NCBI GenBank assembly: GCA_034430755.1
Contig: DAOUDY010000003.1
Location: 1 to 42,146 of the forward strand
Reading direction: 5' to 3'
Source: Dehalococcoidales bacterium
Lineage (GTDB): Bacteria > Chloroflexota > Dehalococcoidia > Dehalococcoidales > RBG-16-60-22
Length of the DNA: 42,146 nt
Under the pieces are notes generated by a model that was not told the DNA's origin, did not search any database, and saw nothing but the letters and a program-made list of their open reading frames with translations. Of the stretch, positions 12,634-27,756 are shown piece after piece (position 1 is the first letter of the stretch; each line of letters starts with the position of its first letter). A program made the translations under genes and the position numbers.

Positions 12634-12890
12634 ATAGCATCATCCTCCTTCCAAACCCGGATTGCATTATCTCCATCAGAAATAGAGAAATAAGCCACAC
12701 CCGAGCATCCACACCACCGCACAAGACACCATCACATTTTAGTCAGTAGTTCCGCCCGATGTCAAGGAAAAATAAAAACGTCAGACGGCAGATTTTAATG
12801 AAATTTAATCATTATTTTTATGATGGCTTAACGTGGTCATTTTAGAATGAGCATGAAGATATCTGGACAAATGGCCTTTGTCAAGCTATA

Positions 12891-12919
12891 TTGACATTTG
12901 CCAATTGGCGAATTATAAT
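12891..12919 (+). promoter_or_regulatory. Consensus sigma70-type promoter (TTGACA-17-TATAAT) with a GCCAATTGGC palindrome in the spacer
   Basis: TTGACA at 12891-12896, TATAAT at 12914-12919, and a perfect 10-bp palindrome at 12900-12909. Confidence 0.55.
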
Positions 12920-12942
12920 AAGATAAGTTGAGGAGCAAAGCC

Positions 12943-13338
12943 ATGCCACAAATAAATAATGACCTCGGCAGAATAATAAAACAGCAGAGAATCGCCATTC
13001 CGCTGACCCTGCAGGAACTGGCCGCTGCTTCGGAGGTATCTTCTTCTCATTTAGGACGTATTGAGAGAGGCGAGCGCTTCCCCTCAGCTCACATCCTGCG
13101 CCGAATTGCCAAGCCTCTTGGCTTTGACGAGGATGAGCTCTTCACCCTCGCCGGTTTCCTGTCGCCGCACACCTCCACAGTCGCCGAAGAGAGAGGTACC
13201 GCTTACGGCAACCGCCGCCTGGACCCGTATGTTGCCAAAATCTTGGCCGAGGAGCCAATCGAGATTCAACGGGCTATAATCGGCATTCTCAACACGGTGA
13301 AACTTGTGGCCAAGGGAATGGCCAGAGAAAACGAGTGA
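12943..13338 (+). CDS. XRE-family helix-turn-helix transcriptional regulator
   Basis: ATG at 12943 preceded by AGGAG (12931-12935). HTH_3-type motif LTLQELAAASEVSSSHLGRIERGER. Confidence 0.8.
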   Translation: MPQINNDLGRIIKQQRIAIPLTLQELAAASEVSSSHLGRIERGERFPSAHILRRIAKPLGFDEDELFTLAGFLSPHTSTVAEERGTAYGNRRLDPYVAKILAEEPIEIQRAIIGILNTVKLVAKGMARENE

Positions 13339-13377
13339 TATCCTTACGCCCATAAAAATGCACCGACGGCGGTAGAG

Positions 13378-14088
13378 ATGGAAGGCCTGAGACAGATAAG
13401 TGATAAGGATGGTAAAAAGATTGGCTTTGGCGATGCCACCGTCCATGAGCTGAGAACGCTGCTTACGGCCATCATTGTTTCCGCAGAGCTTCTGTCCGAA
13501 GAACTTCAGTCAGACCATAAAGGTATGCCGCTGAGACTTATCCAGAATATAGTTCGCAATGCGCACAGCCTTGATGAAAAATTGACCAACTTTTCAGAAA
13601 TGGCCGGCCTGCTTTCCGGCGAGTTTTCCTTTCAGCCCGAGACGCTTGAGGTTGGGCCGGTCGTTCGCGGCATAACCTCTCAGATCTACCCGATTACGCA
13701 CAGCCGAAAACAGTCATTACACATTGATTTGCCCGCAGCCCTGCCTCATATCCGGGCACACCGCCATTACCTGGAACAGATACTGATTAATCTGCTCACC
13801 AATGCCAGCAAGTTTACGCCTGAGGGAGGGAACATAACGGTGACGGCCGCCAAGAATGACTCCAATCTAATAATCGAGGTGTCTGATAACGGCATTGGCA
13901 TTCCGGCGGATAAGCAGGAACTGGTATTTCAACCCTATTACCAGATTGACGGAGGCAGGGGAAGCGGGCTGGGACTGGCCATCACCAAGTTCCTGGTGGA
14001 GCTTCATGGCGGCAAGATATGGCTGGAGAGTACCCCGGGGAAGGGCAGCCACTTTTTCTGCTCCCTGCCGCTATCGGGACAGAGCTGA
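13378..14088 (+). CDS. Histidine kinase, DHp plus HATPase core only (no sensor or TM region)
   Basis: 236 aa. H-box ATVHELRTLLTAI at residue ~23, N-box LINLLTNASKF, G1 VSDNGIGIP, G2 GSGLGLAI. Confidence 0.85.
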   Translation: MEGLRQISDKDGKKIGFGDATVHELRTLLTAIIVSAELLSEELQSDHKGMPLRLIQNIVRNAHSLDEKLTNFSEMAGLLSGEFSFQPETLEVGPVVRGITSQIYPITHSRKQSLHIDLPAALPHIRAHRHYLEQILINLLTNASKFTPEGGNITVTAAKNDSNLIIEVSDNGIGIPADKQELVFQPYYQIDGGRGSGLGLAITKFLVELHGGKIWLESTPGKGSHFFCSLPLSGQS

Positions 14089-14105
14089 GAGCAGAGGGTG
14101 AATAG

Positions 14106-14798
14106 ATGAAAGTAGTGGTTATTGATGATTCACCGGAAATAATAGAGGTAGTCTCTCTGTGCTTCCAGCTACGCTGGGGGAACACATCGGTGTTTCCCGC
14201 CAGTGATGGCAACAAGGGGCTGGAGCTTGTCGAGAAGGAAAACCCTGATCTGGTCATACTTGATATCGGCCTGCCCGATATGGACGGTTTCCAGGTGCTC
14301 CGTGAGATACGGCGCTTCTCTCATGTCCCGGTGATAATGCTTACCGTGAAGAGCGAAGACACTGATATCGCCAAGGGGCTGGAACTGGGCGCCGATGATT
14401 ACGTTACCAAGCCCTTCAGTCATATTGAACTGCTGGCCCGGGTGCAGGCGGTGATGCGCCGTTCCCGGGGTGAGCCATCTCCCGCTGAGGAACAGCCTTA
14501 CACCAGCGGCAAACTGCACGTTGACTTTGCCCGCAATGAGGTCCTGATCGATGGCAAGCCGGTGAAGCTTACGTCGACAGAGTATAAATTACTCTACCAT
14601 CTCATCAAAAATGAGGGGCGTTTGCTTTCCCATGAAAACCTGCTCACCAAGGTATCCGGCGAAGCATATCGCGACGCCCGTGACCTGCTCCGGGTCCACA
14701 TTCAGCACCTGCGGCAAAAGCTCGGTGATAACGTTGAATCACCCGGCATCATAGTTACCGAGCACGGCATGGGCTACAAGTTTGTCAGTCCCGCCTGA
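14106..14798 (+). CDS. OmpR/PhoB-family response regulator
   Basis: 230 aa. Canonical receiver (DD, ILDIGLPDMDG, MLT, TKPF) and a winged-helix output domain (TEYKLLYHL...GMGYKF). Confidence 0.9.
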   Translation: MKVVVIDDSPEIIEVVSLCFQLRWGNTSVFPASDGNKGLELVEKENPDLVILDIGLPDMDGFQVLREIRRFSHVPVIMLTVKSEDTDIAKGLELGADDYVTKPFSHIELLARVQAVMRRSRGEPSPAEEQPYTSGKLHVDFARNEVLIDGKPVKLTSTEYKLLYHLIKNEGRLLSHENLLTKVSGEAYRDARDLLRVHIQHLRQKLGDNVESPGIIVTEHGMGYKFVSPA

Positions 14799-14860
14799 CC
14801 TCGGAACGGACGGCCCGCCGCCTTCCCGAAAAAATTGCGCTTCTAACCATCCGGCCCGCC

Positions 14861-14940
14861 ATTCTTTACGAAACTTTAATAGAACCTTTACGAAATCTTT
14901 ATTTTTTTTATGCCTGTCTTTATGCTCACGTGTTAGATTA
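14861..14940 (+). promoter_or_regulatory. Conserved cis-regulatory module, copy 1 (two TTTACGAAA repeats 22 bp apart, two TCTTTAT repeats, TG-extended -10-like TAGATT)
   Basis: It aligns without gaps to 23052-23131. It ends ~40 bp before the ATG at 14979. Confidence 0.55.
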
Positions 14941-14978
14941 AAAGCGTAGATATTACGGCAGCTTTAGAGGAGCTGAAT

Positions 14979-15764
14979 ATGGATAAAATAACCGTCTTTC
15001 TGGCAGACTGGCAGGTTCTTTTCCGTGAAGGCATTCACTTTACCCTGTCCGGTGAGGAAGATATGGAAGTGATTGGTGAAGACGTAGGTAACGAACAGGC
15101 ACTGGCTTTTATTGAGACCAATCCACCGCAGGTGGCGATTTTGAACGCGAGCCATGATAAGGTAAACGGTTTTGAGGCCACGCGTACGATTAAACAGACC
15201 CTGCCTGAAGTATCGGTTATCCTGGTCATGGACAATTACAGCGAGGAACAGCTTTTTGAGACCTTGAAAAGCGGTGCCAGCGCTTGCTTTAACAAGGACG
15301 TTGACCCCGATGTCGTGATTAACACGATAAGGGAAGTGGCGAAGGGCAACCAACCGATAAGTGAGGCCATCCGGAAACCGGAGATTGCCTCCCGGATTCT
15401 TGATGATTTTACCGCGTATTCCTCGCTCGGCGAGGAGGCCGGGAAACTGCTGGCCCACCTCACTCCCCGCGAGGCGGAAATCCTGCACCAGATAGCCGAT
15501 GGCAACACCAAGGAACAGATAGCCAGTACACTGGGCATCACTGATGAGGCACTCGACAAGCGGCTTCACTCCGCACAGTACAAGCTGGTGGTCAACGACC
15601 AGAAGCTAATGGTGATTGAGATGGCCCAGAGCGGCCTGCCGGCGATCTCCCGGGTCAGTTTCACCGGCAAACCGGGTACCGAGTATATTACCAAAGAGGA
15701 ATTCGCCGCTTTCAAGGAAAGCCTGAAAGAACGTTTCAAGTTCCTTAGCGGAGATATAAGTTAA
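14979..15764 (+). CDS. NarL/LuxR-type response regulator with atypical (Asn) phospho-acceptor position and C-terminal extension
   Basis: 261 aa. Receiver-like N-terminus and a LuxR HTH (LTPREAEILHQIADGNTKEQIASTLGITDEALDKRL). The position where Asp is expected reads AILNASHDKVNG. Confidence 0.8.
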   Translation: MDKITVFLADWQVLFREGIHFTLSGEEDMEVIGEDVGNEQALAFIETNPPQVAILNASHDKVNGFEATRTIKQTLPEVSVILVMDNYSEEQLFETLKSGASACFNKDVDPDVVINTIREVAKGNQPISEAIRKPEIASRILDDFTAYSSLGEEAGKLLAHLTPREAEILHQIADGNTKEQIASTLGITDEALDKRLHSAQYKLVVNDQKLMVIEMAQSGLPAISRVSFTGKPGTEYITKEEFAAFKESLKERFKFLSGDIS

Positions 15765-15946
15765 TCAAACATGATACAGGGGGGGTGATCAAATGTGAAA
15801 CAAATATTAGTTGTGGACATCATTAAAGATGGTAGGAATTCCTAAAAAGAATGAGCCAAGAGGAAAACCTACCACCCCAGGAAATGTCAACAATATGTTA
15901 TAAAAAGCAAGGGGAAATTTCAATTATCCGAAAGGAGGAGAAGGAA

Positions 15947-16540
15947 ATGAACAACATTGTAAAAGGAGTAATGGGAAACACACTGAGGCGCTATCTTGTT
16001 ATCGCTCTGGTGGCATCCCTGGTGGTCACCGGCGGCATGTTTGCCTATGCCTACACCGCCGCCACCCAGACGATCACCGTCTCAGCCGCCGGAGCTGACT
16101 TTGCCGAAATTGGCGCCGTAGACACGGGCAAGCCTGTTTATTCAGGTAACGGTAAAATATTCGGGAGCTACCGCGGCAAGATATGGGGCGGCATCCTCTA
16201 CAGCGTCAACCTGACCACCGACTATCCCGGCGACGTAGCCATTAACGTCTACCTGGACAACATCGATGAGATGGGCAAAAACTACGGGCTCTGGATGATA
16301 AAGTTAAGGCTCGTTGCCTCCACCGACAATGCCACTGCCGTGGATGTCCAGACAATTGACCGCCCGCTGACCCTCAATAACGGCGTAGTCTCGTTTGTTG
16401 CCAAGGATTTGAGCACCTCTGCCGAATACCAGATTATAGCTCTGGACGGGGTCTACAAGGCACACCCCTATGCATATTGGGGGACCGCGTTTGGCGCGAT
16501 TACGCCATCGCTGACCGCTGAAGTTCTGCAGGCGAAGTAA
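15947..16540 (+). CDS. Secreted subunit paralog P1 with SipW-cognate-like signal peptide
   Basis: ATG at 15947 follows GGAGGAGAAGGAA. The N-terminus is ...RRYLVIALVASLVVTGGMFA|YAYTAAT. The core motif YPGDVAINVYLDN is shared with P2-P4. Confidence 0.7.
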   Translation: MNNIVKGVMGNTLRRYLVIALVASLVVTGGMFAYAYTAATQTITVSAAGADFAEIGAVDTGKPVYSGNGKIFGSYRGKIWGGILYSVNLTTDYPGDVAINVYLDNIDEMGKNYGLWMIKLRLVASTDNATAVDVQTIDRPLTLNNGVVSFVAKDLSTSAEYQIIALDGVYKAHPYAYWGTAFGAITPSLTAEVLQAK

Positions 16541-16561
16541 CATAGCTTGGGGTTAATCCAA

Positions 16562-16589
16562 CGGGGTTGCCTCATATGAGGCAACCCCG
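16562..16589 (+). terminator. GC-rich hairpin downstream of P1 (possible terminator/attenuator, no U-tract)
   Basis: The near-perfect palindrome CGGGGTTGCCTCATATGAGGCAACCCCG starts 22 nt after the P1 stop. Confidence 0.4.
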
Positions 16590-16602
16590 AAGCAGGAAAG
16601 AG

Positions 16603-16631
16603 TTGACAGATATTATGACAAGTGGTAGACT
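16603..16631 (+). promoter_or_regulatory. Near-consensus promoter for the P2-P3-P4 genes
   Basis: TTGACA (16603-16608), a 17-nt spacer, then TAGACT (16626-16631), ~40 nt upstream of the P2 GTG start. Confidence 0.5.
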
Positions 16632-16673
16632 CTGAGCAAAGTAATACCAACTGTCATAAAGGGAGGCGTAAAA

Positions 16674-17201
16674 GTGAAGAAGCTACTTCTGATTGCTTTA
16701 GTGGCATTGCTGGTGGTAACCGGCGGTATGTTCGCCTACACTTTCACCACCGCTACCGCCACCATTGGCGTTACCGCACCGACGTCTGACTTCGCCAATG
16801 TTACGGCGGGCGGCAGCATCAGCGCACCGTCCGTTTTCGGCAAATTCACCGGCACGTGGCCATCAAGCACATTATTCGACATCACCCCGGCGGAGAACTA
16901 CACCGGCGACCTTGTCGTCAAGGTGTACCTGGTGAATACCGGCCAGTTAATACGGCAGTATCACCACATCAACATGACGCTTGAATTCCAGGACAGCACC
17001 GACACTATGTTTGACGAACAGGGAGAAATCCAGGTCCTGAACATGCAAAATGCTGAAGTCCTGTTCACCTGGGAGAACGGCGCCGGCACCAGTCCTTATA
17101 AAGTGGTGCTCACCGGCGGCGGTTTCCGGCTGCACCCGTTTAAGTCACTGACGGGCGGCAGTTACCAGCCGCAGATATGGTGTGAGATAACCCAGAGATA
17201 A
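16674..17201 (+). CDS. Secreted subunit paralog P2 (smallest, core-only; candidate major subunit)
   Basis: GTG start after GGGAGG. The N-terminus is MKKLLLIALVALLVVTGGMFA|YTFTTATATIGVT. The core is NYTGDLVVKVYLVNTGQLIRQY and the C-terminus is IWCEITQR. Confidence 0.75.
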   Translation: MKKLLLIALVALLVVTGGMFAYTFTTATATIGVTAPTSDFANVTAGGSISAPSVFGKFTGTWPSSTLFDITPAENYTGDLVVKVYLVNTGQLIRQYHHINMTLEFQDSTDTMFDEQGEIQVLNMQNAEVLFTWENGAGTSPYKVVLTGGGFRLHPFKSLTGGSYQPQIWCEITQR

Positions 17202-17228
17202 TTTGGCAACAACTTAAAACAGGCATGA

Positions 17229-20200
17229 ATGACCAGACATTGGGACAAAAAGGCAAAGAAAAAACTGTACCTCTTCATCGCACTGGGGCTCGCGCTGATT
17301 CTCAGCAGCGGGACCTTTGCCTATACCTATGTTACCTCCATCGGCACCATCGGTATTACGCCTCCCACCGCTGATGTCGCCACCTGCAACACGGCTGCCA
17401 GCCAGCCTGACTGGGCATCCATCCTGGTCCCTCCGGAAACCACCGGCACCGAGATATTAAACCCCAACGCCGCCGGTGACAAGACCGATATCCAGAGCCA
17501 GATTGGTTCTGGCGCCCACTGGCAACTGGTGGATGACTGGCCCACGGATGACGGCGACAGCACCATCGTTTACACGGGAAATACCAGCTGGGAAGAGGAC
17601 TTATACAACCTGCCCAGCCACACCGCGACCTCGGGCAACGTGACCTACGTCAAGGTTGACGTTGTCTGCCGTGCCGACGCCAGCCCCACGCAGACAAACG
17701 CCTACGTTCACATAAAGACGAACGGCACGGAGGCTAACGGCCCTGAAGTAACCACCGGCACAAGCTACAGCACCTTCTCCCGCCAGTGGGATACCAATCC
17801 AGTTACCGGAGATGCCTGGACGTGGGACGAGATGGACTCACTGCAAATCGGCGTCGGTTTGCGGCAGCCGACGGGCGGTGGTCTGTCAGGATGCACTCAG
17901 GTATACGCTGAAATTGGCTACGGTGAACTTGTCACCACCGGCGACGTGCCCACCGGCGACCTGTTTACCGTGCACCCCAACCCCGGCTACAACGGTGACC
18001 TGCAAATTGGCATCTATCTGACCAACACCGGCCCGCTGATCAAGGCATACCAGTACCTCAATATGCAGGTATACATGGAGGGCTCGGTATCATCAAACCA
18101 GACGCCCAACCACCGTCTCCTCACCCTCCAGAACGGGCAGACCACCCTGTCCCTGGAAAATTTGGCCGGCGTTTCCGATTCATTCTTTCAGACCAGCCGG
18201 TTGGACTTTGAGGGCGGCAACCTGACCAACCTGGACACGTCCACCAGCCCGGACAACGTCATTCTGGACACCTTCGCCGATAATGTGACCGATAATTTCA
18301 CCGATGAGAGCAAGATTGCCTATAAAAATAATGTGGTTGTTAGCAATAATCAGGTAAAACTGGTGGCTGGCGGCGCCGCCGCTACGGAAACCTTCCGGCC
18401 CAATGCCGCCGGCGATGACACCGATATCGCCTCGCAATATCCTGACTCGGGGGCACACTGGGACAAGGTGAATGATGTAACGCCTGATGATTACACGACC
18501 TATATCTATACCAGCAGTGCTTCCACACTAAACTGGTACAGCTCTGAATGGCAATACCGAAAGAAGATAACCATTAATTCGGCCAATGTCTCGGACAACC
18601 TCACTGATTTTCCGGTTTTAGTCTCGGTCACTGATACCGATTTAAAAGACCATGCTAAATCGGATGCTTCGGACATCGTCTTCACCGCGTCCGACGGTAC
18701 CACCAAATTGAAAAGAGAAATTGAAAGCTATGATAATTCTGACGGTACTTTGGTTGCCTGGGTGAAAACAGACCTGTCAAGCACCACTGATACCGAGGTT
18801 TATCTTTATTACGGATATGCCGGAGCTTCCGAGACCAGCGACACCGACACCTGGGATACCAATTTCATCATGATTCAACACATGACGGATGAGACTACCT
18901 CCAGCATTGAAGACAGCACAACTAATAATAACGATGGCACCAAGCAGGGCGCGGGAGAACCTGCCGTCACCGCCAGTGGCAAGATAGGTGATGCGCAGGA
19001 TTTTGACGGCAGCAATGATAAAATCACGGTGAATGATAGCACAAGCCTCAGCTTCACCAATGATGAAATGACCATCGAAGTCTGGGTGAAAGCTGACACC
19101 CTGCCCACGAACGAGACATCAATACTGAGAAAAGATAACCAGTGGCAGATGGCTTTCGTGGACTCGGATACAATTAGGAATCTGATTGCCACAAATGGCA
19201 TCACTGGCTGGACAGCCGCCAATGATGAAGATTACACCTTCTCCACTGATACCTGGTACTACTGGACTTTCGTCTACAACGGCCCGAATGTCCGCCACAT
19301 GATCGATGCCCAGCAGGTCGGCAGTTCCCACACCGTCACCGGCAACATCACCGATAATGCTAATGTCGCCGAGATAGGCCGCTGCAGTTATACGAATGAA
19401 TTCCTGGATGGAATCATCGATGAGTTACGCATCTCCAATGTGGCCAGAAGTGATGCCTGGATAGAGACCAGCTACAACAACCAGAGCGCCCCCGGTGATT
19501 TTTTCAACGTGGGGAGCGAGGAGTCTGCCGGCTATGAAAGGGACCTATATAACATCCCCGACCACAGCACCGGCTCCGGCGTCATTGACAGCGTTAACGC
19601 CTACTTCAGTATTGCCAGAGACTCAGTCATTGGCGATGCTGGCATCTGGCGGGATACCAACAACACCCACACCATCGGAGCCCTTAATGTCTGGACAGAC
19701 GTCCCGTTCAACAGCGAGAATAAAACCAGCGGCAGCTTTAACCATACCAGCGATACCCAGACTGACCTGACCGCCGATGGCTGGTATCTCATCATGTACG
19801 AAATAAGGTCAACCTCCACTTCCAACACCAGACACAGCATATGGGCGCGGGTTACCCTGGAAGGTTCGGCGGTGGAGGGCAGCGAGGGGTTCGGTTACGT
19901 CAGAGACAATGCCAATGATGAAGGGTATACGGCCGGCGCCTGCATCGTCAACGCCAGCGCCAACGATACCGTGGTGGTGCAGTGGCGGCCCTACGGTGTG
20001 AGTTCCTCTGATGTTCTGTCAAACTCCAAGGCTTCGCTCTTCATCCTGAGGCTTCCCGATGATACCGATGTCGCCTATCTGAAGTATGCCGATGACAGCG
20101 ATACCGGCGCCTACGGCGGCACGAGCTGGGCCGGAAACGAGGTTACCTGGGCAGACCAGGTATATGAAACGGACAACAGCGTCATTCAGAAGTCGGCGGC

Positions 20201-21992
20201 CAATGACTACACCTTCACCCTCAAAAAAGTCGCCCGGTATCTGGTCAAGTATGATATCACCTTCGCAAATAGCTCCTCCACCAGGACAGCCAGAATAGCC
20301 CGGGCTACCCTGGCCGGTTCCCCCATACCGCAAAGTTTTGCCTACTGCCATGTTCGAAACAACGTTACTACACCCGCCACATTACATGCGCTCTTTATTG
20401 TTGATAACCCATCACCGAATCAGGACCTCATCATTCAATCCCAGCGAGGCGACTCGCTGGTAGATTCAACGGTAGCCAGGACAGTCAGCGCTTCCAGCAT
20501 CGAGATTATGGAGCTGCCGTCAAGCGCCGAAGTAATCACCACTTATTATACTGATACCGGGGAAGAGATATCCGGTGGTGTAGTGCTGGACTGGGCCGCC
20601 GTGGAAGGAGTGCGTGATGCCAGCTCCTTCACCATTTCTGATAATGAGACCATAGAGGTGGAGCAGGATGATGATTACCTGTTTATGGCCAACGGGTTAA
20701 TCACCGATACTGTCCAGACTTCCGGCACCCGGTTCACCTTCGGGGCCGACTGGTACGTCGATGACAGCATCCAGTATGTGGGCGGTCACGGGAATTACAT
20801 GCGGCATGTCCAGGGCACTGTTGGAGTTTTCAACACCAGTATAAACGCACATAGTATTTTGAATGACCTGGATGCCAACCAGGAAGTGGAAATGCGTACT
20901 ATCAATGAAGGTGATACCGGTACCCCCAACTACGCCCAGCCCGACCAGTGCGGCTTCAGCGCGCTCAGGATAGGCAGCCTGTCAGCGACCAATGCTTACG
21001 CCCGGGCGGCCATCAAGCCCGGGGACACTGTTCATACCGGCACCGAAGAAAGCACCGCCGACGCCACCTTCACCACCAAGTCCTACCAGTGGACGACCAA
21101 CCCTGACACGGGCCAACCCTGGACCTGGGATGAAATAGACGCTTTGCAAGTCGGTGTGGAACTGAAGACAGACAGCACCGAGGACTCTTCCATCTGTACG
21201 CAGGTCTACCTTGAGGTTGATTACACCGCGTACAGTTCGCCGGGAACACTCACCTCGATAAATCTTCTCTCCGGGGAGACGGTGGCGAGTATAGACACGT
21301 TCAATTACGACGCCTCGGCGGTTCCCTCCGGCACGGGCCTGAAAGTGCAGTTCTCCACCGATAACAGCACCTGGTACAACTCGGCGGGCACGCCCGGCGG
21401 CTGGGATACCATGCCCCAGGGGACGGGTAATATCAGCCTTTCCGGGCTGGGCTGGTCGGGGCCCAATCTCTACTACAATACGGAATTCACCTCTGACGGC
21501 TCGGATACGCCGTTGCTCGACCTGATACGCGTCTATTTCTCCACCTACTACTCGACGGGCGATCTGACCTCAGCAACCTATGACACCGGCGATGACCAGG
21601 ACTGGGACTGGGAATATATCTATTTCACCATTGACGAGCCGGGGACCACTGATATCAGGTTCCAGATAAGGAGCGCCTCGACTGAAGCCGGGCTCAGCTC
21701 GGCGACCTGGTACGGCCCCACCGGCACGGGCGACTATTACACGGCCAGCGGCACAGAAATCAACTCCGTCCATGATGGCGACCGCTGGATTCAGTACCGG
21801 GCCGATTTCTCCGGCCCCGGCGATGCCACGCCAACCCTGAGCGATATCGAGTTGACCTACACCCTGGCCTCGGTGACTTACACCGTGGAAATAATCGGCG
21901 GTAGCTACGGGCTGGTCTCGTCCGACACGTCGGACTGGGCGTCGGGGTGGACGATTACCCCAGAGTTTTACTGCGAGGTAACCCAGCGGTAA
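17229..21992 (+). CDS. Giant secreted paralog P3 (1587 aa): subunit core carrying nested DUF2341-like, LamG and repeat-domain insertions
   Basis: The N-terminus is ...LALILSSGTFA|YTYVTSIGTIGIT. The DUF2341-like stretch is WQYRKKITINSANVSDNLTDFPVLVSV...YLYYG. LamG motifs are FDGSNDKITV...EVWVKAD...LDGIIDELRISNVARSDAWI. The C-terminus GWTITPEFYCEVTQR is shared with P4. Confidence 0.85.
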   Translation: MTRHWDKKAKKKLYLFIALGLALILSSGTFAYTYVTSIGTIGITPPTADVATCNTAASQPDWASILVPPETTGTEILNPNAAGDKTDIQSQIGSGAHWQLVDDWPTDDGDSTIVYTGNTSWEEDLYNLPSHTATSGNVTYVKVDVVCRADASPTQTNAYVHIKTNGTEANGPEVTTGTSYSTFSRQWDTNPVTGDAWTWDEMDSLQIGVGLRQPTGGGLSGCTQVYAEIGYGELVTTGDVPTGDLFTVHPNPGYNGDLQIGIYLTNTGPLIKAYQYLNMQVYMEGSVSSNQTPNHRLLTLQNGQTTLSLENLAGVSDSFFQTSRLDFEGGNLTNLDTSTSPDNVILDTFADNVTDNFTDESKIAYKNNVVVSNNQVKLVAGGAAATETFRPNAAGDDTDIASQYPDSGAHWDKVNDVTPDDYTTYIYTSSASTLNWYSSEWQYRKKITINSANVSDNLTDFPVLVSVTDTDLKDHAKSDASDIVFTASDGTTKLKREIESYDNSDGTLVAWVKTDLSSTTDTEVYLYYGYAGASETSDTDTWDTNFIMIQHMTDETTSSIEDSTTNNNDGTKQGAGEPAVTASGKIGDAQDFDGSNDKITVNDSTSLSFTNDEMTIEVWVKADTLPTNETSILRKDNQWQMAFVDSDTIRNLIATNGITGWTAANDEDYTFSTDTWYYWTFVYNGPNVRHMIDAQQVGSSHTVTGNITDNANVAEIGRCSYTNEFLDGIIDELRISNVARSDAWIETSYNNQSAPGDFFNVGSEESAGYERDLYNIPDHSTGSGVIDSVNAYFSIARDSVIGDAGIWRDTNNTHTIGALNVWTDVPFNSENKTSGSFNHTSDTQTDLTADGWYLIMYEIRSTSTSNTRHSIWARVTLEGSAVEGSEGFGYVRDNANDEGYTAGACIVNASANDTVVVQWRPYGVSSSDVLSNSKASLFILRLPDDTDVAYLKYADDSDTGAYGGTSWAGNEVTWADQVYETDNSVIQKSAANDYTFTLKKVARYLVKYDITFANSSSTRTARIARATLAGSPIPQSFAYCHVRNNVTTPATLHALFIVDNPSPNQDLIIQSQRGDSLVDSTVARTVSASSIEIMELPSSAEVITTYYTDTGEEISGGVVLDWAAVEGVRDASSFTISDNETIEVEQDDDYLFMANGLITDTVQTSGTRFTFGADWYVDDSIQYVGGHGNYMRHVQGTVGVFNTSINAHSILNDLDANQEVEMRTINEGDTGTPNYAQPDQCGFSALRIGSLSATNAYARAAIKPGDTVHTGTEESTADATFTTKSYQWTTNPDTGQPWTWDEIDALQVGVELKTDSTEDSSICTQVYLEVDYTAYSSPGTLTSINLLSGETVASIDTFNYDASAVPSGTGLKVQFSTDNSTWYNSAGTPGGWDTMPQGTGNISLSGLGWSGPNLYYNTEFTSDGSDTPLLDLIRVYFSTYYSTGDLTSATYDTGDDQDWDWEYIYFTIDEPGTTDIRFQIRSASTEAGLSSATWYGPTGTGDYYTASGTEINSVHDGDRWIQYRADFSGPGDATPTLSDIELTYTLASVTYTVEIIGGSYGLVSSDTSDWASGWTITPEFYCEVTQR

Positions 21993-22022
21993 GCCTCAAA
22001 TGCAGGCGCAGGTGATAGAGCG

Positions 22023-23042
22023 GTGAATAAAAACGTTATGCTCATTGTAGTATTGGCGGCACTGCTGGCCGTCAGCGGCGGTATATATGCCTACACGTAC
22101 ACCACCGGCCTGGGCGTCATCAGCATCACCGAGCCAACCGGTGACATCGCCACTGTAAATGCCTCAGGTAACCAGCCAGAATGGCTTGAAGTGCTGTCCA
22201 TCGCCCAGGATACAGAAACGCTGAGGCCAAATGCCGCCGGCACATACACACAATGTGACGCGGTTGGCGATACTGCCAACTACCTTTGTGTAGATGAGGC
22301 TGTCAGTGACGGTGACACCACATATGTCAGAACATGGGGCGGTGCTACCGAGCTGGATACCTATAATATCGAGGATCATACCACCGGGAGTGGAAACGTC
22401 ACCGATGTATATGCTTATACACATACGAGAGTTGATTCAGGCACCCACGACGCAGAAGTGGCCATCAGAACGAATAGCACGGACTATTTTGGGGGCTACA
22501 CTTCAGGGGTGCCAACAACCTATACATACTTATCAGCTAACTGGAACAACAATCCATTCACAAATAACCCTTGGACGTGGGCTGAGGTTGATGCGCTGGA
22601 AATCGGTGTCAGACACTATGACCTTAATGGCGGCTACTTATGGACCACACAGGTCTATGCCGATATTGATTATGACTACCTGCCCGTCACCGGAAATGCA
22701 CCCACGGGAGACCTTTTTGAAGTATATGAAAACCCTGACTACAGCGGCGACCTATCAGTAAGGGTCTACCTGACCAACACCGGCTCGCTGCAAAAAGCCT
22801 ATGAGAGCCTTGAACTGGAGCTGTATCTGGAGGACTCCGAGGAGGCGGGGCAATCACCGAATTACCAGGAGCTTACTTTAGAGAACGGGGTGGCCAGCTT
22901 CACCCTGAAAGACCCGGCCAGCGATAACCATACCCTGTCCGTAATCGGGGGCGACTACGCCCTGGTCTCGGACAATATGCCGGAATGGGAGGCGGGGTGG
23001 ACGATTACCCCAGAGTTCTACTGCGAGGCGACACAGCGGTAA
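22023..23042 (+). CDS. Secreted subunit paralog P4 (core plus one inserted module)
   Basis: GTG start. The N-terminus is MNKNVMLIVVLAALLAVSGGIYA|YTYTTGLGVISIT. It is collinear with P3 residues 1-310 and 1546-1587. The C-terminus is GWTITPEFYCEATQR. Confidence 0.8.
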   Translation: MNKNVMLIVVLAALLAVSGGIYAYTYTTGLGVISITEPTGDIATVNASGNQPEWLEVLSIAQDTETLRPNAAGTYTQCDAVGDTANYLCVDEAVSDGDTTYVRTWGGATELDTYNIEDHTTGSGNVTDVYAYTHTRVDSGTHDAEVAIRTNSTDYFGGYTSGVPTTYTYLSANWNNNPFTNNPWTWAEVDALEIGVRHYDLNGGYLWTTQVYADIDYDYLPVTGNAPTGDLFEVYENPDYSGDLSVRVYLTNTGSLQKAYESLELELYLEDSEEAGQSPNYQELTLENGVASFTLKDPASDNHTLSVIGGDYALVSDNMPEWEAGWTITPEFYCEATQR

Positions 23043-23051
23043 CATATCGGC

Positions 23052-23131
23052 GATTTTTACGAAAGCTTAACGGAACCTTTACGAAATCTTTATGTTTTTT
23101 ACGCCAATCTTTATGCCCCTGTGTTACAGTT
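23052..23131 (+). promoter_or_regulatory. Conserved cis-regulatory module, copy 2 (upstream of the signal peptidase gene)
   Basis: By my hand count it has ~61/75 identical positions to 14861-14935 without gaps. TTTACGAAA occurs at 23056 and 23078. Confidence 0.55.
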
Positions 23132-23163
23132 ATATTAGAATGATATAGGGCTAAAGCAACAAG

Positions 23164-24123
23164 ATGAAGGAATTTCTGAATATAATCCTGACCAGATCAT
23201 TCCGCTTCAAGCGCGCGCTCACGCTCATCGCGGTAGCGGCGATAATCCTCGCCGGCTTTATGACGGTACGGGGCACCATGCCGTTTATGCCCGTTTTCGG
23301 TACCAGCATGGAGCCGGAACTCCACGCCGGCAACCTCATCCTGATTACAGACAAGAGTCCGGATGGTGTTGAAGTCGGCGACATTATTGTCTATAACGTC
23401 CCGGCGGCAATCCAGGATTTTTATAACTACCCGGCGATAGTCGCGCACCGGGTAATTGAGGTACGCGATACTCAGTATGGCACTGCCTGGCGTACCAAGG
23501 GCGATAACGCCGGCGAAGACCCGTTCACGGTCCGCGCCAATGACCTGCGCGGCACGGTCAGCACCCAGATTCCCTTCCTGGGCTTCCCCTTCCTCTTCCT
23601 GCAGAGCAAGCAGGGCCTGATGTTCATTATCGTTGCCCTGTCGCTTTTCGCCATCTATCTCTACGCCAATGACATCAGCCGCGGCGGGCAGAAGATACAC
23701 CGTGGCATATTCGCGCCGGTTATCGAAGAGACATTACATGATACCGAAACACTGGCCCAGCGGATGGACGGCACCGAGAAAGTGATGGCCAAGACGCAGG
23801 AAGCGCTGAGCAGCTTCGCCACCGCCATGTCGGAATATGCCGAGCACCTGAGAAGCCATACCAGCGCCATTCAGGGGCTTGCCGAAGCGTCTCACGAACT
23901 CAAACGTGGTGCTGCCGAGCAGAACAAAGCCCTCGAGCACATCGTGGAGGCCCTGCAGCAGCGAAGGCCGCTCACCGAGGTGACCCCGCCTTCAGAGAAG
24001 CCGACGGCACCAACACCAACACCGGCACCGGCACCGGCACGGGAAAAAGGTAAATATCCTCCGGGCTGCGTGAGAAACAGACAGCTGGCTGGCGTGGGGC
24101 AAGACATTTACGGCGCTGCCTGA
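23164..24123 (+). CDS. ER/archaeal-type signal peptidase I (SipW/Sec11-like, S26B) with ~150-aa C-terminal extension
   Basis: 319 aa. N-terminal TM, GTSMEP (Ser48), AHRV (His95), TKGDNAGEDP (Asp114), and a second TM at 150-168. These are followed by a coiled-coil-like segment and a Pro-rich tail (PTAPTPTPAPAPA). Confidence 0.85.
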   Translation: MKEFLNIILTRSFRFKRALTLIAVAAIILAGFMTVRGTMPFMPVFGTSMEPELHAGNLILITDKSPDGVEVGDIIVYNVPAAIQDFYNYPAIVAHRVIEVRDTQYGTAWRTKGDNAGEDPFTVRANDLRGTVSTQIPFLGFPFLFLQSKQGLMFIIVALSLFAIYLYANDISRGGQKIHRGIFAPVIEETLHDTETLAQRMDGTEKVMAKTQEALSSFATAMSEYAEHLRSHTSAIQGLAEASHELKRGAAEQNKALEHIVEALQQRRPLTEVTPPSEKPTAPTPTPAPAPAREKGKYPPGCVRNRQLAGVGQDIYGAA

Positions 24124-24387: not shown

Positions 24388-26394
24388 TTAAACTGCCCCC
24401 AGTTGCAGACGCTGGCGATATTCCCCACGGCGCGGGCTGTAAACGAGAACAAAGCCGAGCACCCGCCGCTTTGCCGCATCAAGCCCGGCACGATTGTCCG
24501 TGATATCTATGACGTCACAGAGCTGCTGACCGCAATTGACCGGCACCAGTATGGTGCCGCTGGCCGATGCCACCTCTGCCTGTCTCAAATAAGCGTCGCC
24601 ACGTTCCTGCGCTTTGGCCACGGTGTCTATGTTCCTGTCTTCCAGCTGCCTGATTTTATCGTATAATCGGTCTATCTCATCCCAGGCAAAACGGTCAACC
24701 ACAATCGCCTCACCGCTCCCCGCGTCATAGCCCTCCACCTGGACGCGGTTGAGCTCCCAGGCTCCCTGCCTGTATCTCCCCTCCAGAATCGGGTGCTCCT
24801 CTCCATAGCTGTACAATGAGCTGTCCGATGATTGGGGATTGACAATGTAAGCCGTCGCACCTTCGAGAAACAGCACATCAGGAACAAAAGAGAGCAGTTT
24901 TCGGATGATTGTTTCGCCAAGGTTGCCGGAACTGACGGTAAAGTCGGGATAAAAACCGGTGATGACCGATGACTGCGATTTGACTGCCAGCTTCAGCCCT
25001 GCCCGGGCCAGAACGAAGGCCAGTATATCCTTGACGCTCATTTCCTCCGCGTCCTTGTTCCAGCGGAACTGGTGCCTGGCCCTCCAGCCAGCGATGGCCT
25101 CCCAGCCGTCCCGGGCATGGAGTATGAGACTGGCCGCGCCACCGGCACTGGTATGTTCATATCCCTCCAGGCAAAAATGCTGCCCGGCACTTACCTCATC
25201 GCCGTTGTCTGTGCGGTAGCCGGGACTGAAGTCCAGCTGGCAGCCGATGTTGAGAAGGGATAGTTCCCCCTGCCCCGGCGAGGCGTACTGCCCGGCATCG
25301 TTCCTCAGCTCTACGGTAAGTCTGCCCGATGCCTCTCCTGCCTCCTGCCGTACCGCCAGCACATCATCGGTCAGGTCAAGGCTCTGAACGGTGGCTCCGG
25401 CGCGCCAGACGCCCGCCGGACAGGAAAGCCAGCAGTAGTCCCCGTGGTGCGCCGCGGCCAGGCCGTATTCCGACGACAAATCAAATGGCACCGGTTCCCG
25501 CCACAGATTATCAACGAACCCGGCATCCGGAACCGTATGCGACCAGAAAGGACGGTTGTACATCTGGCTGCCGGAAAATCGCTCCACGAAGAAACCCCGG
25601 TAGACATCAGGTTTATCCAGAAATGGCTGAAGGTACTCAAATTCGCCGCCCGATGGCGCTGAGGCCAGCTCTTTTAACGGCGACCAGCTTCCCGCTGCTA
25701 CATCACCACCATCACCATAAATGAGCGACCACAGTTTAAAATTGCCCGATGAATCCCGGCCGGTGACCAGCAGGTTCCAGTCGTCCTCATAGACGGCGGC
25801 GATGCCGGACAGGTCACCGGTGCTTTTATCCCAGGTGGTGCGTTGCTGCCACTGGCCGCCGATGTTCTTCTTCACATACATCGTCGCCTGGTCAGCGAAG
25901 AATATCGCCAGGTCACCGTTTGGCCTGTAGGCCGCCGCCAGGCCACCGATATTGATGGTCGGGTTATAGTCAATGACCTCGGGGCTTCCCCAGCTAACGC
26001 CGTTATCGGTGCTCTTTATACGCTGGATCTTGCGGTTGACGCCATCTATCCAGAAAATGGAAACCTCAGCCCCCACCGCGGCACAGGCAACGGCGGCGGC
26101 ATTCATCTGGTTGGTGTATATCCACTGGCTGAAGTCGCTTGACGGACCGGGGTCAGACACCCGCTGGCGGTAAAGCCTGCGCGAATCGCCGGGCAGGGTC
26201 GCCCTGACGCGGATGAGAGAGCCATCGCCGGGCATGGCCACCACATGGTAATAATCATCCTCGGAGCCGGTGTACAGCCTGTTCCAGTCAAGCCTCACCA
26301 CGCCGGCAATTTTGTTCCTGGCTTCTACCTTAACACAGGGAATGGCGGCGGCTTCTTTCTGGGCCGCCAGCAATGTCGATGTCAGGTCGCGCAT
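24388..26394 (-). CDS. Phage-like tail/baseplate-hub-like protein with N-terminal BNR/Asp-box (sialidase-like) region
   Basis: 668 aa. One clear Asp-box (STDNGVSW). By eye the C-terminal ~330 aa resembles gpD/Mu gp44/XkdQ-type hub proteins (LTVELRND...ILAFVLARAGLKL...). This is a pattern-level call only. Confidence 0.45.
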   Translation of the reverse strand: MRDLTSTLLAAQKEAAAIPCVKVEARNKIAGVVRLDWNRLYTGSEDDYYHVVAMPGDGSLIRVRATLPGDSRRLYRQRVSDPGPSSDFSQWIYTNQMNAAAVACAAVGAEVSIFWIDGVNRKIQRIKSTDNGVSWGSPEVIDYNPTINIGGLAAAYRPNGDLAIFFADQATMYVKKNIGGQWQQRTTWDKSTGDLSGIAAVYEDDWNLLVTGRDSSGNFKLWSLIYGDGGDVAAGSWSPLKELASAPSGGEFEYLQPFLDKPDVYRGFFVERFSGSQMYNRPFWSHTVPDAGFVDNLWREPVPFDLSSEYGLAAAHHGDYCWLSCPAGVWRAGATVQSLDLTDDVLAVRQEAGEASGRLTVELRNDAGQYASPGQGELSLLNIGCQLDFSPGYRTDNGDEVSAGQHFCLEGYEHTSAGGAASLILHARDGWEAIAGWRARHQFRWNKDAEEMSVKDILAFVLARAGLKLAVKSQSSVITGFYPDFTVSSGNLGETIIRKLLSFVPDVLFLEGATAYIVNPQSSDSSLYSYGEEHPILEGRYRQGAWELNRVQVEGYDAGSGEAIVVDRFAWDEIDRLYDKIRQLEDRNIDTVAKAQERGDAYLRQAEVASASGTILVPVNCGQQLCDVIDITDNRAGLDAAKRRVLGFVLVYSPRRGEYRQRLQLGAV

Positions 26395-26403
26395 TTTTTC
26401 CTT

Positions 26404-26724
26404 TCACACCAGCGCCGCCAGGATATCTGGCAGCGGCTTGTTTCCCTTTCGATAATGTTCCGCAAGATGAAGGGCCGCCCCGAGTATCTCTTCCGGGCTA
26501 ACACGAACTCTTTTACCCGGACTTAACGGGGACAGGGCATTTGCCGCATCGGCAGCCTGACTCCAGTCGACGGTCTGCTCGATATCCAGAAGGCCTTTGA
26601 GAGCCCGGCCAATATTTCTCTTATGATGCGGCAAATGCCAGGTATCTGGATTCCCCACATCGCCAACGATAGCAAATGCCTCGCGGGGCAGGCCTTCTTT
26701 GGTCCGCTTCGTTCCTTCTTTCAT
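26404..26724 (-). CDS. Hypothetical protein (phage-like block)
   Basis: 106-aa ORF, co-oriented, with a 9-nt gap to the next gene. Confidence 0.45.
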   Translation of the reverse strand: MKEGTKRTKEGLPREAFAIVGDVGNPDTWHLPHHKRNIGRALKGLLDIEQTVDWSQAADAANALSPLSPGKRVRVSPEEILGAALHLAEHYRKGNKPLPDILAALV

Positions 26725-26736
26725 GTCTGCCTCACA

Positions 26737-27375
26737 TCAGGGACCATAATCAGTTGACTTTGAGACCACCGGATAGTATGGCTTATACAGGCTGCTGTCC
26801 CTGACCCGGTTTCTCCTTCCCAGGCGCCTCAATTCCTGCCGGAAAAAGTTCAGCCTTTCCCGGCCCCAACCAAGAAACTCCCGGGGCGTGGTATCTCCAC
26901 CAACATTCACCCGATTGACAGCAAAAATAGCCCACTCGACGGCAGCATAACCGGCAGCGCCGGCAGCAACCAGGTCTTCATACCGGCCGGGGATGGTGGA
27001 ACCATCAGCGTCAAGAGTGTGCAGCTTACCGTAGTACACATAAGCATTGGAGCCGTCCGGTATCTCCTCACTCAATATGGTCAGGGTATCTCCCCACAGC
27101 GAGAACCTCTGGTAACGTCTGGGGAACTGGTCCACCGGGTACTCAACCGCCATCATCATTACCCTGTCGGAAAGGTTTGATATATCCAGCTCCCGCAAGC
27201 CTGAGGTCGTAGCTTTCGTCGCCTTCTGCTCGCTTGGCAGATACTCGGACAAATCTTTAACCGCACGGGCAATGTGCCTGTTCAGTTCATCATCAGTCCA
27301 GCGATAGTTACCGTCATCCTCGTCATGGAGGTCACGCCGGACCATGGCTCTCATATCAGTTAAATTCATAATCAC
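26737..27375 (-). CDS. Putative head-tail adaptor/connector-like protein
   Basis: 212 aa. The N-terminus LTDMRAMVRRDLHDEDDGNYRWTDDELNRHIARAVKDLSEYL resembles gp6-like head-tail connector N-termini. The position relative to the capsid gene fits that role. Confidence 0.4.
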   Translation of the reverse strand: MIMNLTDMRAMVRRDLHDEDDGNYRWTDDELNRHIARAVKDLSEYLPSEQKATKATTSGLRELDISNLSDRVMMMAVEYPVDQFPRRYQRFSLWGDTLTILSEEIPDGSNAYVYYGKLHTLDADGSTIPGRYEDLVAAGAAGYAAVEWAIFAVNRVNVGGDTTPREFLGWGRERLNFFRQELRRLGRRNRVRDSSLYKPYYPVVSKSTDYGP

Positions 27376-27450
27376 CTCACCCCCTTAGTCCCCCTCTCCT
27401 TAAAAGGAGAGGGGGGAAATGATTTTTTGAAGGGGGCTTCGCCCCTTCAT
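27376..27450. repeat. Intergenic double-hairpin repeat, copy B (10-bp C/G stem 27390-27415 plus GAAGGGG..CCCCTTC 27429-27448)
   Basis: It has the same architecture as 2758-2835, with similar C-rich flanks. Confidence 0.5.
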
Positions 27451-27463
27451 ACTTCCCTTTTAT

Positions 27464-27544
27464 TTAGACAGCAGCTTTTCTGCTTGCCCTTTTCTTAGAT
27501 AGCAGCTTTTCTGCTTGCCCTTTTCTTAGATAGCAGCTTTTCTG
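27464..27544. repeat. 31-bp tandem direct repeat, about 2.6 copies
   Basis: Units occupy 27464-27494, 27495-27525 and 27526-27544 (TTAGA[C/T]AGCAGCTTTTCTGCTTGCCCTTTTC). The partial unit contains the stop codon and last codons of ORF 27526-27756. Confidence 0.9.
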
Positions 27545-27756
27545 ACCTCCAGTCTTTCCAGCTTGGTGCAGGGCAGGCCTTCATCATGCCGGCATATCTC
27601 AATGTCACAGAATGAAATCTCCTCGTTACTCATGCCCTCATTGATGCTGACGGCTTTACCGCTCAATTCCCGGGCATATTCCATCAGTGATTGTGCATCA
27701 GCTTCGCGGTCAAAGCTCAAATCAACTCTTACCCGATACTTCATCGATACCTCCAC
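27526..27756 (-). CDS. Hypothetical small acidic protein (phage-like block)
   Basis: 76-aa ORF. Its start overlaps the LamG gene stop by 16 nt. Confidence 0.45.
   Translation of the reverse strand: MEVSMKYRVRVDLSFDREADAQSLMEYARELSGKAVSINEGMSNEEISFCDIEICRHDEGLPCTKLERLEVRKAAI

Follow-up and report, generated by a model that had tools for sequence, protein, structure and literature searches.

A Dehalococcoidia Gene Cluster for a Probable Donor-Strand Surface Filament, with Subunits Resembling Archaeal Cannula Proteins and a Dedicated Sec11-Type Signal Peptidase

Introduction

Polymerisation through N-terminal donor-strand complementation has been described for the cannula proteins CanA and CanX, for AbpA, for AbpX and for TasA (10.1101/2024.12.30.630787; PMC9245690; 10.64898/2026.01.04.697558), and in the case of CanA, CanX and Hyper2 the polymer is reinforced by Ca2+ (10.1101/2024.12.30.630787, published as PMC12518558). 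In TasA-like loci, genes for major, minor and tip subunits often stand together with those for regulators and for a signal peptidase I (10.1101/2024.12.30.630787; PMC9245690; 10.64898/2026.01.04.697558). AbpX homologs and PF12389 (TasA/camelysin) proteins have been noted in Chloroflexota (10.64898/2026.01.04.697558; PMC9245690). Here we describe a gene cluster in a 42,146-nt stretch of contig DAOUDY010000003.1 (assembly GCA_034430755.1) from a Dehalococcoidales bacterium; this whole stretch is called the window below. Nine open reading frames (ORFs), all on the forward strand, make up the cluster and encode an XRE regulator, a histidine kinase, an OmpR-type regulator, a LuxR-type regulator, four subunit-like proteins designated P1 to P4, and a signal peptidase. 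The likely product of the cluster, in our view, is a surface filament of the TasA superfamily that is exported by Sec. It would assemble by donor-strand complementation, and its subunits would be new bacterial relatives of CanA and CanX.

Subsurface and marine sediments hold abundant Dehalococcoidia, a mostly uncultured class that matters for organohalide respiration. Their envelope is described as peptidoglycan-free, archaeal-like and bounded by an S-layer, and such an envelope would suit a fibre that is built without a chaperone. To our knowledge, the cell-surface biology of this class is almost unknown, and reports of the cannula-like branch of the TasA superfamily have until now been confined to hyperthermophilic Thermoproteota. 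A search of the full-text literature for Dehalococcoidia together with TasA, cannulae or appendages returned nothing relevant and no paper describing the cluster.

The Subunit Family and the Cannula Proteins

The four subunit genes are consecutive, and one N-terminal hydrophobic segment was found in each product by hydropathy scan. The signal ends read VTGGMFA↓YAYT in P1, VTGGMFA↓YTFT in P2, SSGTFA↓YTYV in P3 and SGGIYA↓YTYT in P4, where the arrow marks the cut that would fall after GG-x-[FY]-A by analogy with TasA. All four proteins contain the core motif Y-x-GD-[LV]-x-[IV]-x-[IV]-YL-x-N, and the C-terminus [WY]CE[IVA]TQR is found in P2, P3 and P4 only; the wider family conserves both motifs. 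An earlier note, made from the letters of this DNA alone, had proposed four paralogous subunits with these signal ends and motifs, and the ORFs, translations and BLASTP comparisons (P1-P2, 8e-15; P2-P3, 2.5e-13 and 7e-9; P2-P4, 8e-12 and 9e-10; P4-P3, 5e-60) bear it out. P1 to P4 are thus true paralogs and the sharing of motifs is not by chance. The N-terminal strand is among the best-conserved segments across the paralogs, and many members of the wider family keep the signal end GG-x-[FY]-A-[YF]-T and the C-terminus [FY]CEV-x-Q-[RAK]. In the C-terminal strand x-C-E-[AVI]-T-Q-R (residues 170-175 of P2, 1582-1587 of P3 and 334-339 of P4), the Glu and the Gln are invariant in the window-centred alignments A1-A3 and the Cys is frequently substituted. 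Pfam and NCBIfam scans gave no family for P1, P2 and P4, and P3 matched only LamG and BclA_C.

The AlphaFold2 model of P2 (predicted local distance difference test, pLDDT, 81.9; predicted template modelling score, pTM, 0.72) is a beta-sandwich with a short helix after the conserved YLxN strand. When this model was compared with the PDB by Foldseek, the best match was the P. abyssi cannula protein CanX (9H8B; E = 1.1e-4, TM-score 0.54/0.62), followed by CanA (7UII, 9DLO and 9HDI; E = 1.2e-4 to 2.4e-4), the Hyper2 tube (9BAB; E = 3.8e-4) and, in sixth place, the Pyrobaculum bundling-pilus protein AbpA (7UEG; E = 2.5e-3). All six are donor-strand filament subunits of the TasA superfamily, and ranks 7 to 20 are generic carbohydrate-binding modules (CBMs) at E>=0.019. 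Sequence profiles point the same way. A hidden Markov model (HMM) of 55 diverse family members matched CanA (1.1e-4) and CanX (1.6e-4) and gave no other significant match in the PDB, and a 92-member profile matched the same two proteins at 2.5e-5 and 8.6e-5, respectively. No PDB match was obtained with profile A1, which holds the close P2 orthologs alone; CanA and CanX were reached only by the diversified profiles A5 and A6.

The match spans a strand-helix-strand segment, V-x-V-x-L-x-N-x-x-x-L-x-x-x-Y-x-Y-L, which is the most conserved core of the family. In the alignment, the family pattern D-Y-T-G-D-L-x-V-x-V-Y-L-x-N-x-x-x-L-x-x-x-Y-x-Y-L-N...L-T-L-x-N-G stands against CanA KDQVNDVKLKVTLANAEQLKPYFKYLQIQI...VISLDNPS, and the secondary structure (strand, helix, strand) agrees over the aligned segment. 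To judge from the profile matches and the predicted fold, this is most likely a new bacterial family related to CanA and CanX, the cannula proteins of archaea. The earlier note had found no link from the subunits to TasA or camelysin beyond the signal peptide; they can be linked to known fibres, through CanA and CanX and not through TasA. The fibre with a dedicated peptidase that it proposed gains support from both the filament-subunit matches of the P2 model and these profile matches.

Beyond CanA and CanX, the profile has two weak and non-significant matches at positions 14-84 (P2 ~1-60), which hold the transmembrane (TM) segment and the first strand: archaellin 9I5H (E = 0.14) and archaeal pilin 6W8U (E = 1.2). 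They speak for type IV pilin- or archaellin-like subunits that retain the N-terminal hydrophobic helix in the mature filament, a proposal that we regard as scarcely credible: the N-terminus has no class III [KR]G↓hydrophobic motif, the adjacent peptidase is of the S26B type, the globular domain is CanA-like, and an A24 prepilin peptidase, an assembly ATPase and a platform protein were not found in the 42-kb window. The type IV pilin reading was rejected for its missing machinery and wrong peptidase. The cannula paper (10.1101/2024.12.30.630787) reported that proteins of the TasA superfamily match archaeal flagellins at the level of subdomains. Pfam scans of the window also gave no further type IV pilus machinery, no sortase, no SLH or LPXTG protein, and no chaperone or usher family of the chaperone-usher pili.

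Among described systems, CanA, CanX and Hyper2 of the Pyrodictiaceae (7UII, 9H8B, 9BAB) resemble the present family in being its best structural and only significant profile matches, in their similar size and in a Sec-type N-terminus that is followed by an N-terminal beta-strand, which is the donor strand in CanA. Unlike them, the present subunits are found in bacteria (Dehalococcoidia and at least one Bacillota metagenome-assembled genome (MAG)) and not in hyperthermophilic archaea. Minor paralogs, a giant adhesin-bearing paralog, a four-regulator set and the C-terminal [FY]CEVTQR further set the bacterial family apart from the cannulae. Moreover, cannula loci were reported without a dedicated peptidase (10.1101/2024.12.30.630787), whereas the present family is always paired with an S26B peptidase. 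CanA, and Hyper2 from a MAG, have been produced as recombinant proteins and examined by cryo-EM, and K1-CanA shows that assembly is lost on deletion at the N-terminus.

The nearness to the cannula proteins raises the question of polymer shape. Instead of a thin pilus, the same proteins and chemistry could give a higher-order structure, be it a cannula-like tube with a hollow core, a para-crystalline matrix or a 2D sheet, through donor-strand exchange together with lateral, possibly Ca2+-mediated, contacts; the CanA/CanX tubes and the AbpX lattices are the models for it. The tube formers CanX, CanA and Hyper2 are indeed nearer by fold and sequence than the pilus former AbpA, P2 is close to CanX in size (154 vs ~149 residues) and acidic (isoelectric point, pI, 4.8), and its very high conservation fits several packing interfaces. 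We nevertheless hold such an architecture to be unlikely, since a linear fibre with polarity is what the adhesin domains of the minor subunits and the giant tip-like protein suggest, cannula loci were reported without dedicated peptidases and accessory subunits (10.1101/2024.12.30.630787), and the Asp plus Glu content of P2 is 8% compared with ~15% reported for AbpX-like proteins (10.64898/2026.01.04.697558).

In its layout, the locus agrees with the AbpX-type loci (10.64898/2026.01.04.697558), which likewise combine a major subunit, subunit-like minors, a tip protein, signal peptidase I, a histidine kinase and transcription factors in hosts whose envelope is described as monoderm or archaeal-like. 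Since this layout has already been described for AbpX/TasA-like loci, the present locus adds a new family and not a new kind of locus. It differs from them in that the associated peptidases there have ten reported TM helices and here two, and in that AbpX clusters with TasA by BLAST while the present family does not. A signal peptidase I accessory protein and a sortase, SLH or LPXTG partner were not found in the window, and no accessory gene lies between P4 and the peptidase or downstream of the latter. With the Pyrobaculum AbpA bundling pili (PMC9245690), the likeness lies in the sixth-best structural match to P2.

The Individual Subunits

P2 has 175 residues (mature ~154); its N-terminal strand reads YTFTTATATIGV, and it ends in WCEITQR. 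Ortholog identity across related loci is 66-88% for P2, 44-62% for P4 and 29-56% for P1, and 55-93% for the regulators and the peptidase. Being the most conserved subunit, core-only, and provided with its own conserved promoter and Shine-Dalgarno (SD) sequence, P2 would be the major subunit, as the earlier note had suggested.

P4 consists of the family core and one CBM-like beta-sandwich domain (residues ~60-220), which the alignment places after the first core strands. Its AlphaFold2 model (pLDDT 81.2) has two confident beta-sandwich domains, and Foldseek relates it to tandem CBMs (CBM16, CBM22, CBM51). Residues 15-41, including the conserved post-cleavage strand YTYTTGLGVISITEPTGD, are unplaced in the model (pLDDT<50). 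An unplaced strand beside two confident domains is the behaviour expected of a donor strand without its partner.

In P3, the family core is split into residues ~1-65 plus 236-316 and 1545-1587. Over 300 residues, which take in the signal, the strand and half of the core (the first), the protein is 43% identical to P4; its last 41 residues are 61% identical to the C-terminus of P4, and the inserts between add up to >1200 residues. These comprise Laminin_G_3 (593-745) and BclA_C/C1q-like (815-942), both found by Pfam, CBM-like 'RPNAAGD' domains and others. The second 'RPNAAGD' domain is apparently split by nested insertions into ~383-430, ~770-818 and ~1258-1332, with the LamG and BclA_C/C1q-like domains between its pieces, and residues ~440-530 look DUF2341-like by eye, a family that the Pfam scan did not detect. 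Both the length and the middle domains of P3 vary between genomes, a variability that, by analogy, is typical of adhesins. P3 is a putative tip or side adhesin and P4 a putative minor subunit, and the lectin-like and CBM-like inserts of the two proteins fit adhesin roles. These assignments agree with the lectin-bearing adhesin (P3) and the minor or adaptor subunit (P4) of the earlier note.

The same inserts could be read in another way, in which P1 to P4 are lectin- or CBM-like proteins of the cell surface, secreted or tethered to the membrane, such as glycan binders associated with the envelope or the S-layer, that are matured by a specialised signal peptidase and do not polymerise. The jelly-roll cores and the inserts of P3 and P4 resemble carbohydrate-binding modules, LamG and C1q-like domains are present in P3, and polymerisation is a property that we infer for all four proteins. 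This reading appears quite unlikely to us in view of the top structural matches, which are filament subunits and not CBMs, and of a sequence profile that reaches CanA and CanX only. The strand next to the cleavage site, conserved in four paralogs and undocked in the P4 model, and a core-only P2 of 154 residues at 68-97% identity are hard to explain in a glycan binder, and the tight link to a private peptidase matches TasA-like systems.

P1 is a core-only paralog with an extension of ~46 residues ahead of the TM segment and with the end ...AEVLQAK in place of CExTQR; it is a candidate minor, anchor, base or initiator subunit. The 46-residue extension (15851-15988) is kept in several orthologs. 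Many family members, often of ~250 residues and including P0283 (L025, 518-1276), P0250 and P0258, have a longer extension of ~70 residues before the TM/signal segment. It has a small beta-grasp/ThiS-like look (one weak Pfam ThiS match, E = 0.14) and would be cytoplasmic by its position. N-regions of this length are unusual in signal peptides that are cleaved, and suggest an anchor, or feedback by the fragment that is cleaved off.

The Signal Peptidase and Its Linkage to the Subunits

The peptidase scores 85.2 bits with TIGR02228, the archaeal-type signal peptidase I model (cutoff 51.85), and 52.6 bits with the Bacillus SipW equivalog model (cutoff 190). In phmmer it matches human SEC11A (3.9e-10), and the alignment puts GTS48MEP, AH95RV and KGD114N on the catalytic Ser, His and Asp. 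By these sequence criteria it is an S26B (Sec11/SipW/archaeal-type) signal peptidase I of the Ser-His-Asp and not the Ser-Lys type, with the Ser48/His95/Asp114 arrangement that the earlier note had assigned.

Two TM segments (15-40 and 143-172) were found by hydropathy scan. The helical tail that follows (~175-265), which would be cytoplasmic by the two-TM topology, is conserved even in remote homologs and bears the motif F-[AS]-P-V-[IL]-E ... Y-A-x-H-L-x-S-H-T-x-A-I-Q-x-L-A. The whole C-terminal region of the peptidase lies at 23686-24123 (residues ~175-319), with distant counterparts at L017 1391-2086, L021 1941-2537 and L025 2630-3502. In the Dehalococcoidia peptidases a Pro-rich end comes after the tail, and the only Pfam signal there is a weak MCPsignal-like match (0.0034). 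For the role of the tail, a regulatory function of the C-terminus of B. subtilis SipW offers a lead.

Linkage of the subunits to this peptidase is tight across two phyla. Four distant family members could be traced to contigs (Desulfotomaculum sp. MAG L017/L018, L021, L022 and L025), and in all four a peptidase of the same clade (36-59% identity) lies directly downstream. Some of these contigs also carry extra divergent paralogs, and the smallest module seen is one subunit plus the peptidase (L021). In every context examined, namely the distant contigs and those Dehalococcoidia loci that reach far enough, the peptidase gene adjoins subunit genes, and co-occurrence of the subunits with S26B peptidases, named in the earlier note among the observations on which its proposal could fail, therefore holds in both. 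What is new here is the obligate pairing with a two-TM Sec11-type peptidase bearing a conserved tail, and the four-regulator module with its putative operator.

Comparison with TasA and Points against the Filament

The tapA-sipW-tasA operon of B. subtilis is the classical fibre-subunit operon with a dedicated Sec11-like signal peptidase and a jelly-roll subunit, and the present cluster is like it in these respects. A transcriptional regulator gene is adjacent in both (XRE here, with a weak match to the SlrR model), and the cleavage regions are alike, GGGTWA↓AFND in TasA and TGGMFA↓YTFT in P2. In contrast to that operon, no TapA-like protein is encoded here, and the peptidase is below the SipW model cutoff and has a long conserved tail. 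The TasA sequence used is identical to 8AUR over mature residues 28-261, and mature TasA starts after GGGTWA.

Several observations weigh against the proposed filament, and the first group concerns TasA itself. The TasA HMM check that the earlier note had asked for turned out negative: PF12389 matched none of P1 to P4 (E<=0.1) and none of the 55 diverse members (E<=1), and hhalign of the family with a 34-sequence TasA alignment gave nine columns only, at a probability of 1.5%. The nine columns are those of the cleavage site (iTGG~FAYt vs VGGGTWAAF). NCBIfam scans of the full proteins (E<=0.1) gave no match to the SipW-cognate signal model TIGR04088, and neither this nor any other signal model was matched by the isolated N-termini at E<=10, the presence of TIGR04088 in that library being unconfirmed. 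The SipW-cognate signal of the earlier note thus stands as a visual GG-x-[FWY]-A likeness, in the very segment that hhalign picks, but is not matched by TIGR04088; the likeness of the cleavage regions, as far as sequence can tell, is real but without statistical support. Membership in TasA/camelysin (PF12389) was rejected, as there is no HMM match and the hhalign match is limited to the cleavage motif.

The second group concerns the cannula link and the assembly. The sequence match to CanA and CanX extends over no more than ~65-75 residues, with E-values of ~1e-4 to 1e-5; TM-scores are moderate (0.45-0.62), and jelly rolls are common folds. The monomer model of P2 docks its own N-terminal strand in the fold, as TasA monomers do likewise. 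Met at -3 of the putative cleavage site is unusual, and donor-strand polymerisation itself is argued here by homology. No protein that would anchor the fibre is evident. Finally, P2, P3 and P4 are spaced by 27-30 nt without a terminator and so are apparently co-transcribed, in which case stoichiometry would have to be set at translation.

Apart from these points, we note that the last core strand of TasA (...FEATQW, residues 228-233) looks like the end of P4 (...YCEATQR), a likeness that hhalign missed. It may reflect convergence or be a remnant of common ancestry.

Regulators and Cis Elements

The four regulators noted earlier, an XRE protein, a kinase without a sensor, an OmpR-type and an atypical LuxR-type protein, are all recovered by their Pfam domains. 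The XRE regulator carries HTH_31/HTH_3, and its syntenic orthologs at 12 loci share 72-89% identity. The histidine kinase consists of HisKA and HATPase_c only, with neither a TM segment nor a sensor domain, and its gene keeps its synteny across related loci. In the OmpR/PhoB-type regulator, the DD pair and the phospho-acceptor D53 are intact. Compared with NarL, the LuxR/NarL-type regulator has Asn55 at the position of the phospho-acceptor Asp59, and its DD pair is reduced to one acidic residue; invariance of Asn55 in 15 orthologs marks it as a conserved pseudo-receiver and justifies the word atypical.

The LuxR-type gene and the peptidase gene are linked, as the earlier note had it, by a duplicated cis element, a 71-nt direct repeat whose copies are 85% identical. 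Two occurrences of its core, TTTACGAAA-N13-TTTACGAAA, lie in the window, where 0.00 would be expected. Together with a degenerate middle copy the core takes on an 11-nt period, and in L013 three clean copies follow each other 11 nt apart. Most related genomes have the TTTACGAAA repeats at these same two places. OmpR/PhoB sites are classically built of tandem direct repeats with an 11-bp period, and by this analogy the OmpR-type regulator is the putative binder of the TTTACGAAA repeats.

The perfect promoter before the XRE gene and the palindrome that it overlaps (Table 1) are, by their sequence, likely an autoregulated promoter/operator. The 28-nt hairpin after P1 is kept in 10 loci with compensatory substitutions and is probably a terminator, an attenuator or an RNA-stabilising element, to judge from its sequence. 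Among orthologs, the P2 promoter has the consensus TTGACA-17-TAAAAT with TG before, followed by a conserved 5' untranslated leader with a GGAGG SD.

Proposed Assembly of the Filament

In the mechanism that we propose, P1 to P4 would enter the membrane through their N-terminal hydrophobic segments, and the two-TM Sec11/SipW-type peptidase would cut them after GG-x-[FY]-A. The cut would expose the conserved amphipathic N-terminal beta-strand, Y-T-[FY]-T-T-A-x-x-T-I-G-V, and the exposed strand would fill the incomplete jelly-roll of a neighbour subunit to give a polymer, as in CanA, CanX, AbpA and TasA. P2 would make the shaft. P3 and P4 share the N-terminal strand and the core, and hence could be incorporated into the polymer, where P4 (core and CBM-like domain) and P3 (core and many lectin-like domains) would act as tip or side adhesins by displaying their binding domains. 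P1, with its cytoplasmic N-terminal extension and divergent C-terminus, is the candidate base or initiator. Expression would be controlled by the soluble histidine kinase, which would phosphorylate the OmpR-type regulator; the latter would bind the repeats before the LuxR and peptidase genes, and the LuxR-type and XRE proteins would add further control.

If this is true, the fibre, conserved and regulated and fitted with lectin-like adhesins that vary, would be a candidate means by which Dehalococcoidia attach to particles or to partner cells, a point of interest for syntrophy. The cannula-like branch would then extend into bacteria, where it is tied to a dedicated Sec11-type peptidase, and the finding would support the view that monoderm and archaeal-type envelopes bear donor-strand fibres of the TasA superfamily as a general feature. 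It also defines a new protein family for annotation.

A bolder proposal, which we rate as rather unlikely, is that this is the first bacterial cannula-type system, with chaperone-free tubes or a matrix linking cells and with a CanA/CanX-related family shared by Thermoproteota and monoderm, archaeal-like bacteria (Dehalococcoidia and some Bacillota), possibly through cross-domain transfer. In such a system, the invariant C-terminal E-x-x-Q and the conserved Thr-rich donor strand might form a new kind of inter-subunit lock, for example a metal site or a cross-link of the ester or isopeptide type, and the conserved cytoplasmic tail of the peptidase might couple secretion to regulation.

Distribution and Organisation of the Cluster

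Sixteen loci were found among the GTDB species representatives, every one of them from a Dehalococcoidia MAG. By tblastn against the related loci, the order XRE, histidine kinase, OmpR, LuxR, P1, P2, P3, P4, peptidase is intact wherever the contig is long enough. Two variants were seen. In L003 (4153-5982), P1 and P2 are followed by a short subunit-like fragment and then the peptidase, without P3 and P4, and in L014, P3-P4 lie apart from the genes for the kinase, OmpR, LuxR, P1, P2 and the peptidase (182-3172 vs 6460-11471). They indicate that the adhesin-bearing subunits are dispensable for, or separable from, the core module.

The subunit family is small. In 5.8 billion proteins 270 homologs of P2 are detectable, and the best 120 of these are 169-183 residues long and 68-97% identical to it. 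The few named ones among these 120 come from Dehalococcoidia, Dehalococcoidales or Chloroflexota MAGs or from a subsurface metagenome and are annotated as 'hypothetical'. The family profile found 300 clusters only, 191 of them with E<=1e-10, in 1.84 billion representatives. A bacterial subunit family related to CanA and CanX, with no Pfam model and ~300 representative clusters that all bear the label 'hypothetical' at present, is new.

Table 1. Positions of the cluster genes, sequence elements and adjoining block in the window
Feature	Position	Strand	Remark
Sigma-70-type promoter	12891-12919	+	TTGACA-17-TATAAT, perfect; overlaps 32-nt palindrome 12889-12920; before XRE gene
XRE regulator	12928-13338	+	136 aa
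Histidine kinase	13378-14088	+	236 aa
OmpR-type regulator	14106-14798	+	230 aa
Cis element, copy 1	14865-14935	+	upstream of LuxR-type gene; TTTACGAAA at 14865 and 14887
LuxR-type regulator	14979-15764	+	261 aa
P1	15851-16540	+	229 aa
28-nt palindrome	16562-16589	+	GC-rich, perfect; after P1; no T-run
P2 promoter	16603-16631	+	TTGACA-17-TAGACT, TG upstream of -10
P2	16674-17201	+	175 aa
P3	17229-21992	+	1587 aa
P4	22023-23042	+	339 aa
Cis element, copy 2	23056-23126	+	upstream of peptidase gene; TTTACGAAA at 23056 and 23078
Signal peptidase	23164-24123	+	319 aa
Phage-derived head, portal, adaptor block	24388-32024	-	directly downstream of peptidase gene

Neighbouring Genes and the Phage-Derived Block

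The upstream neighbours of the cluster are purL, purQ and yqeY, and argS, gatCA, dnaJ, gpsA, plsY, der and argF lie farther out. Downstream, a head/portal/adaptor block of phage origin that includes a LamG protein adjoins the cluster and is co-conserved with it, so that the cluster might be thought a part of this module, encoding tail-fibre or host-recognition proteins. We give this reading next to no weight. The whole neighbourhood, purL and yqeY included, is syntenic, which makes the adjacency uninformative, and no functional link was inferred from it; signal peptides and a membrane signal peptidase imply Sec export and not virion assembly in the cytoplasm; and the distant family members have the peptidase but no phage genes. 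On the strength of the Sec signals and of these distant members, the tail-fibre reading was rejected.

The block itself encodes a 668-aa protein, an SU10-type adaptor, a 213-aa LamG protein, an SPP1-type portal, a sigma70_r4-like small protein and an HK97-type major capsid protein (phrog_212, 7.5e-76), and no large terminase or tail genes were seen in it. Orthologous blocks are present in L002-L007, L010, L012 and L013. Their position is kept across species as strongly as that of purL, with identities of 83-98% for the major capsid protein and 68-87% for the 668-aa protein. Owing to this strong positional conservation, the block looks like a domesticated element akin to a gene transfer agent and not like a sporadic prophage.

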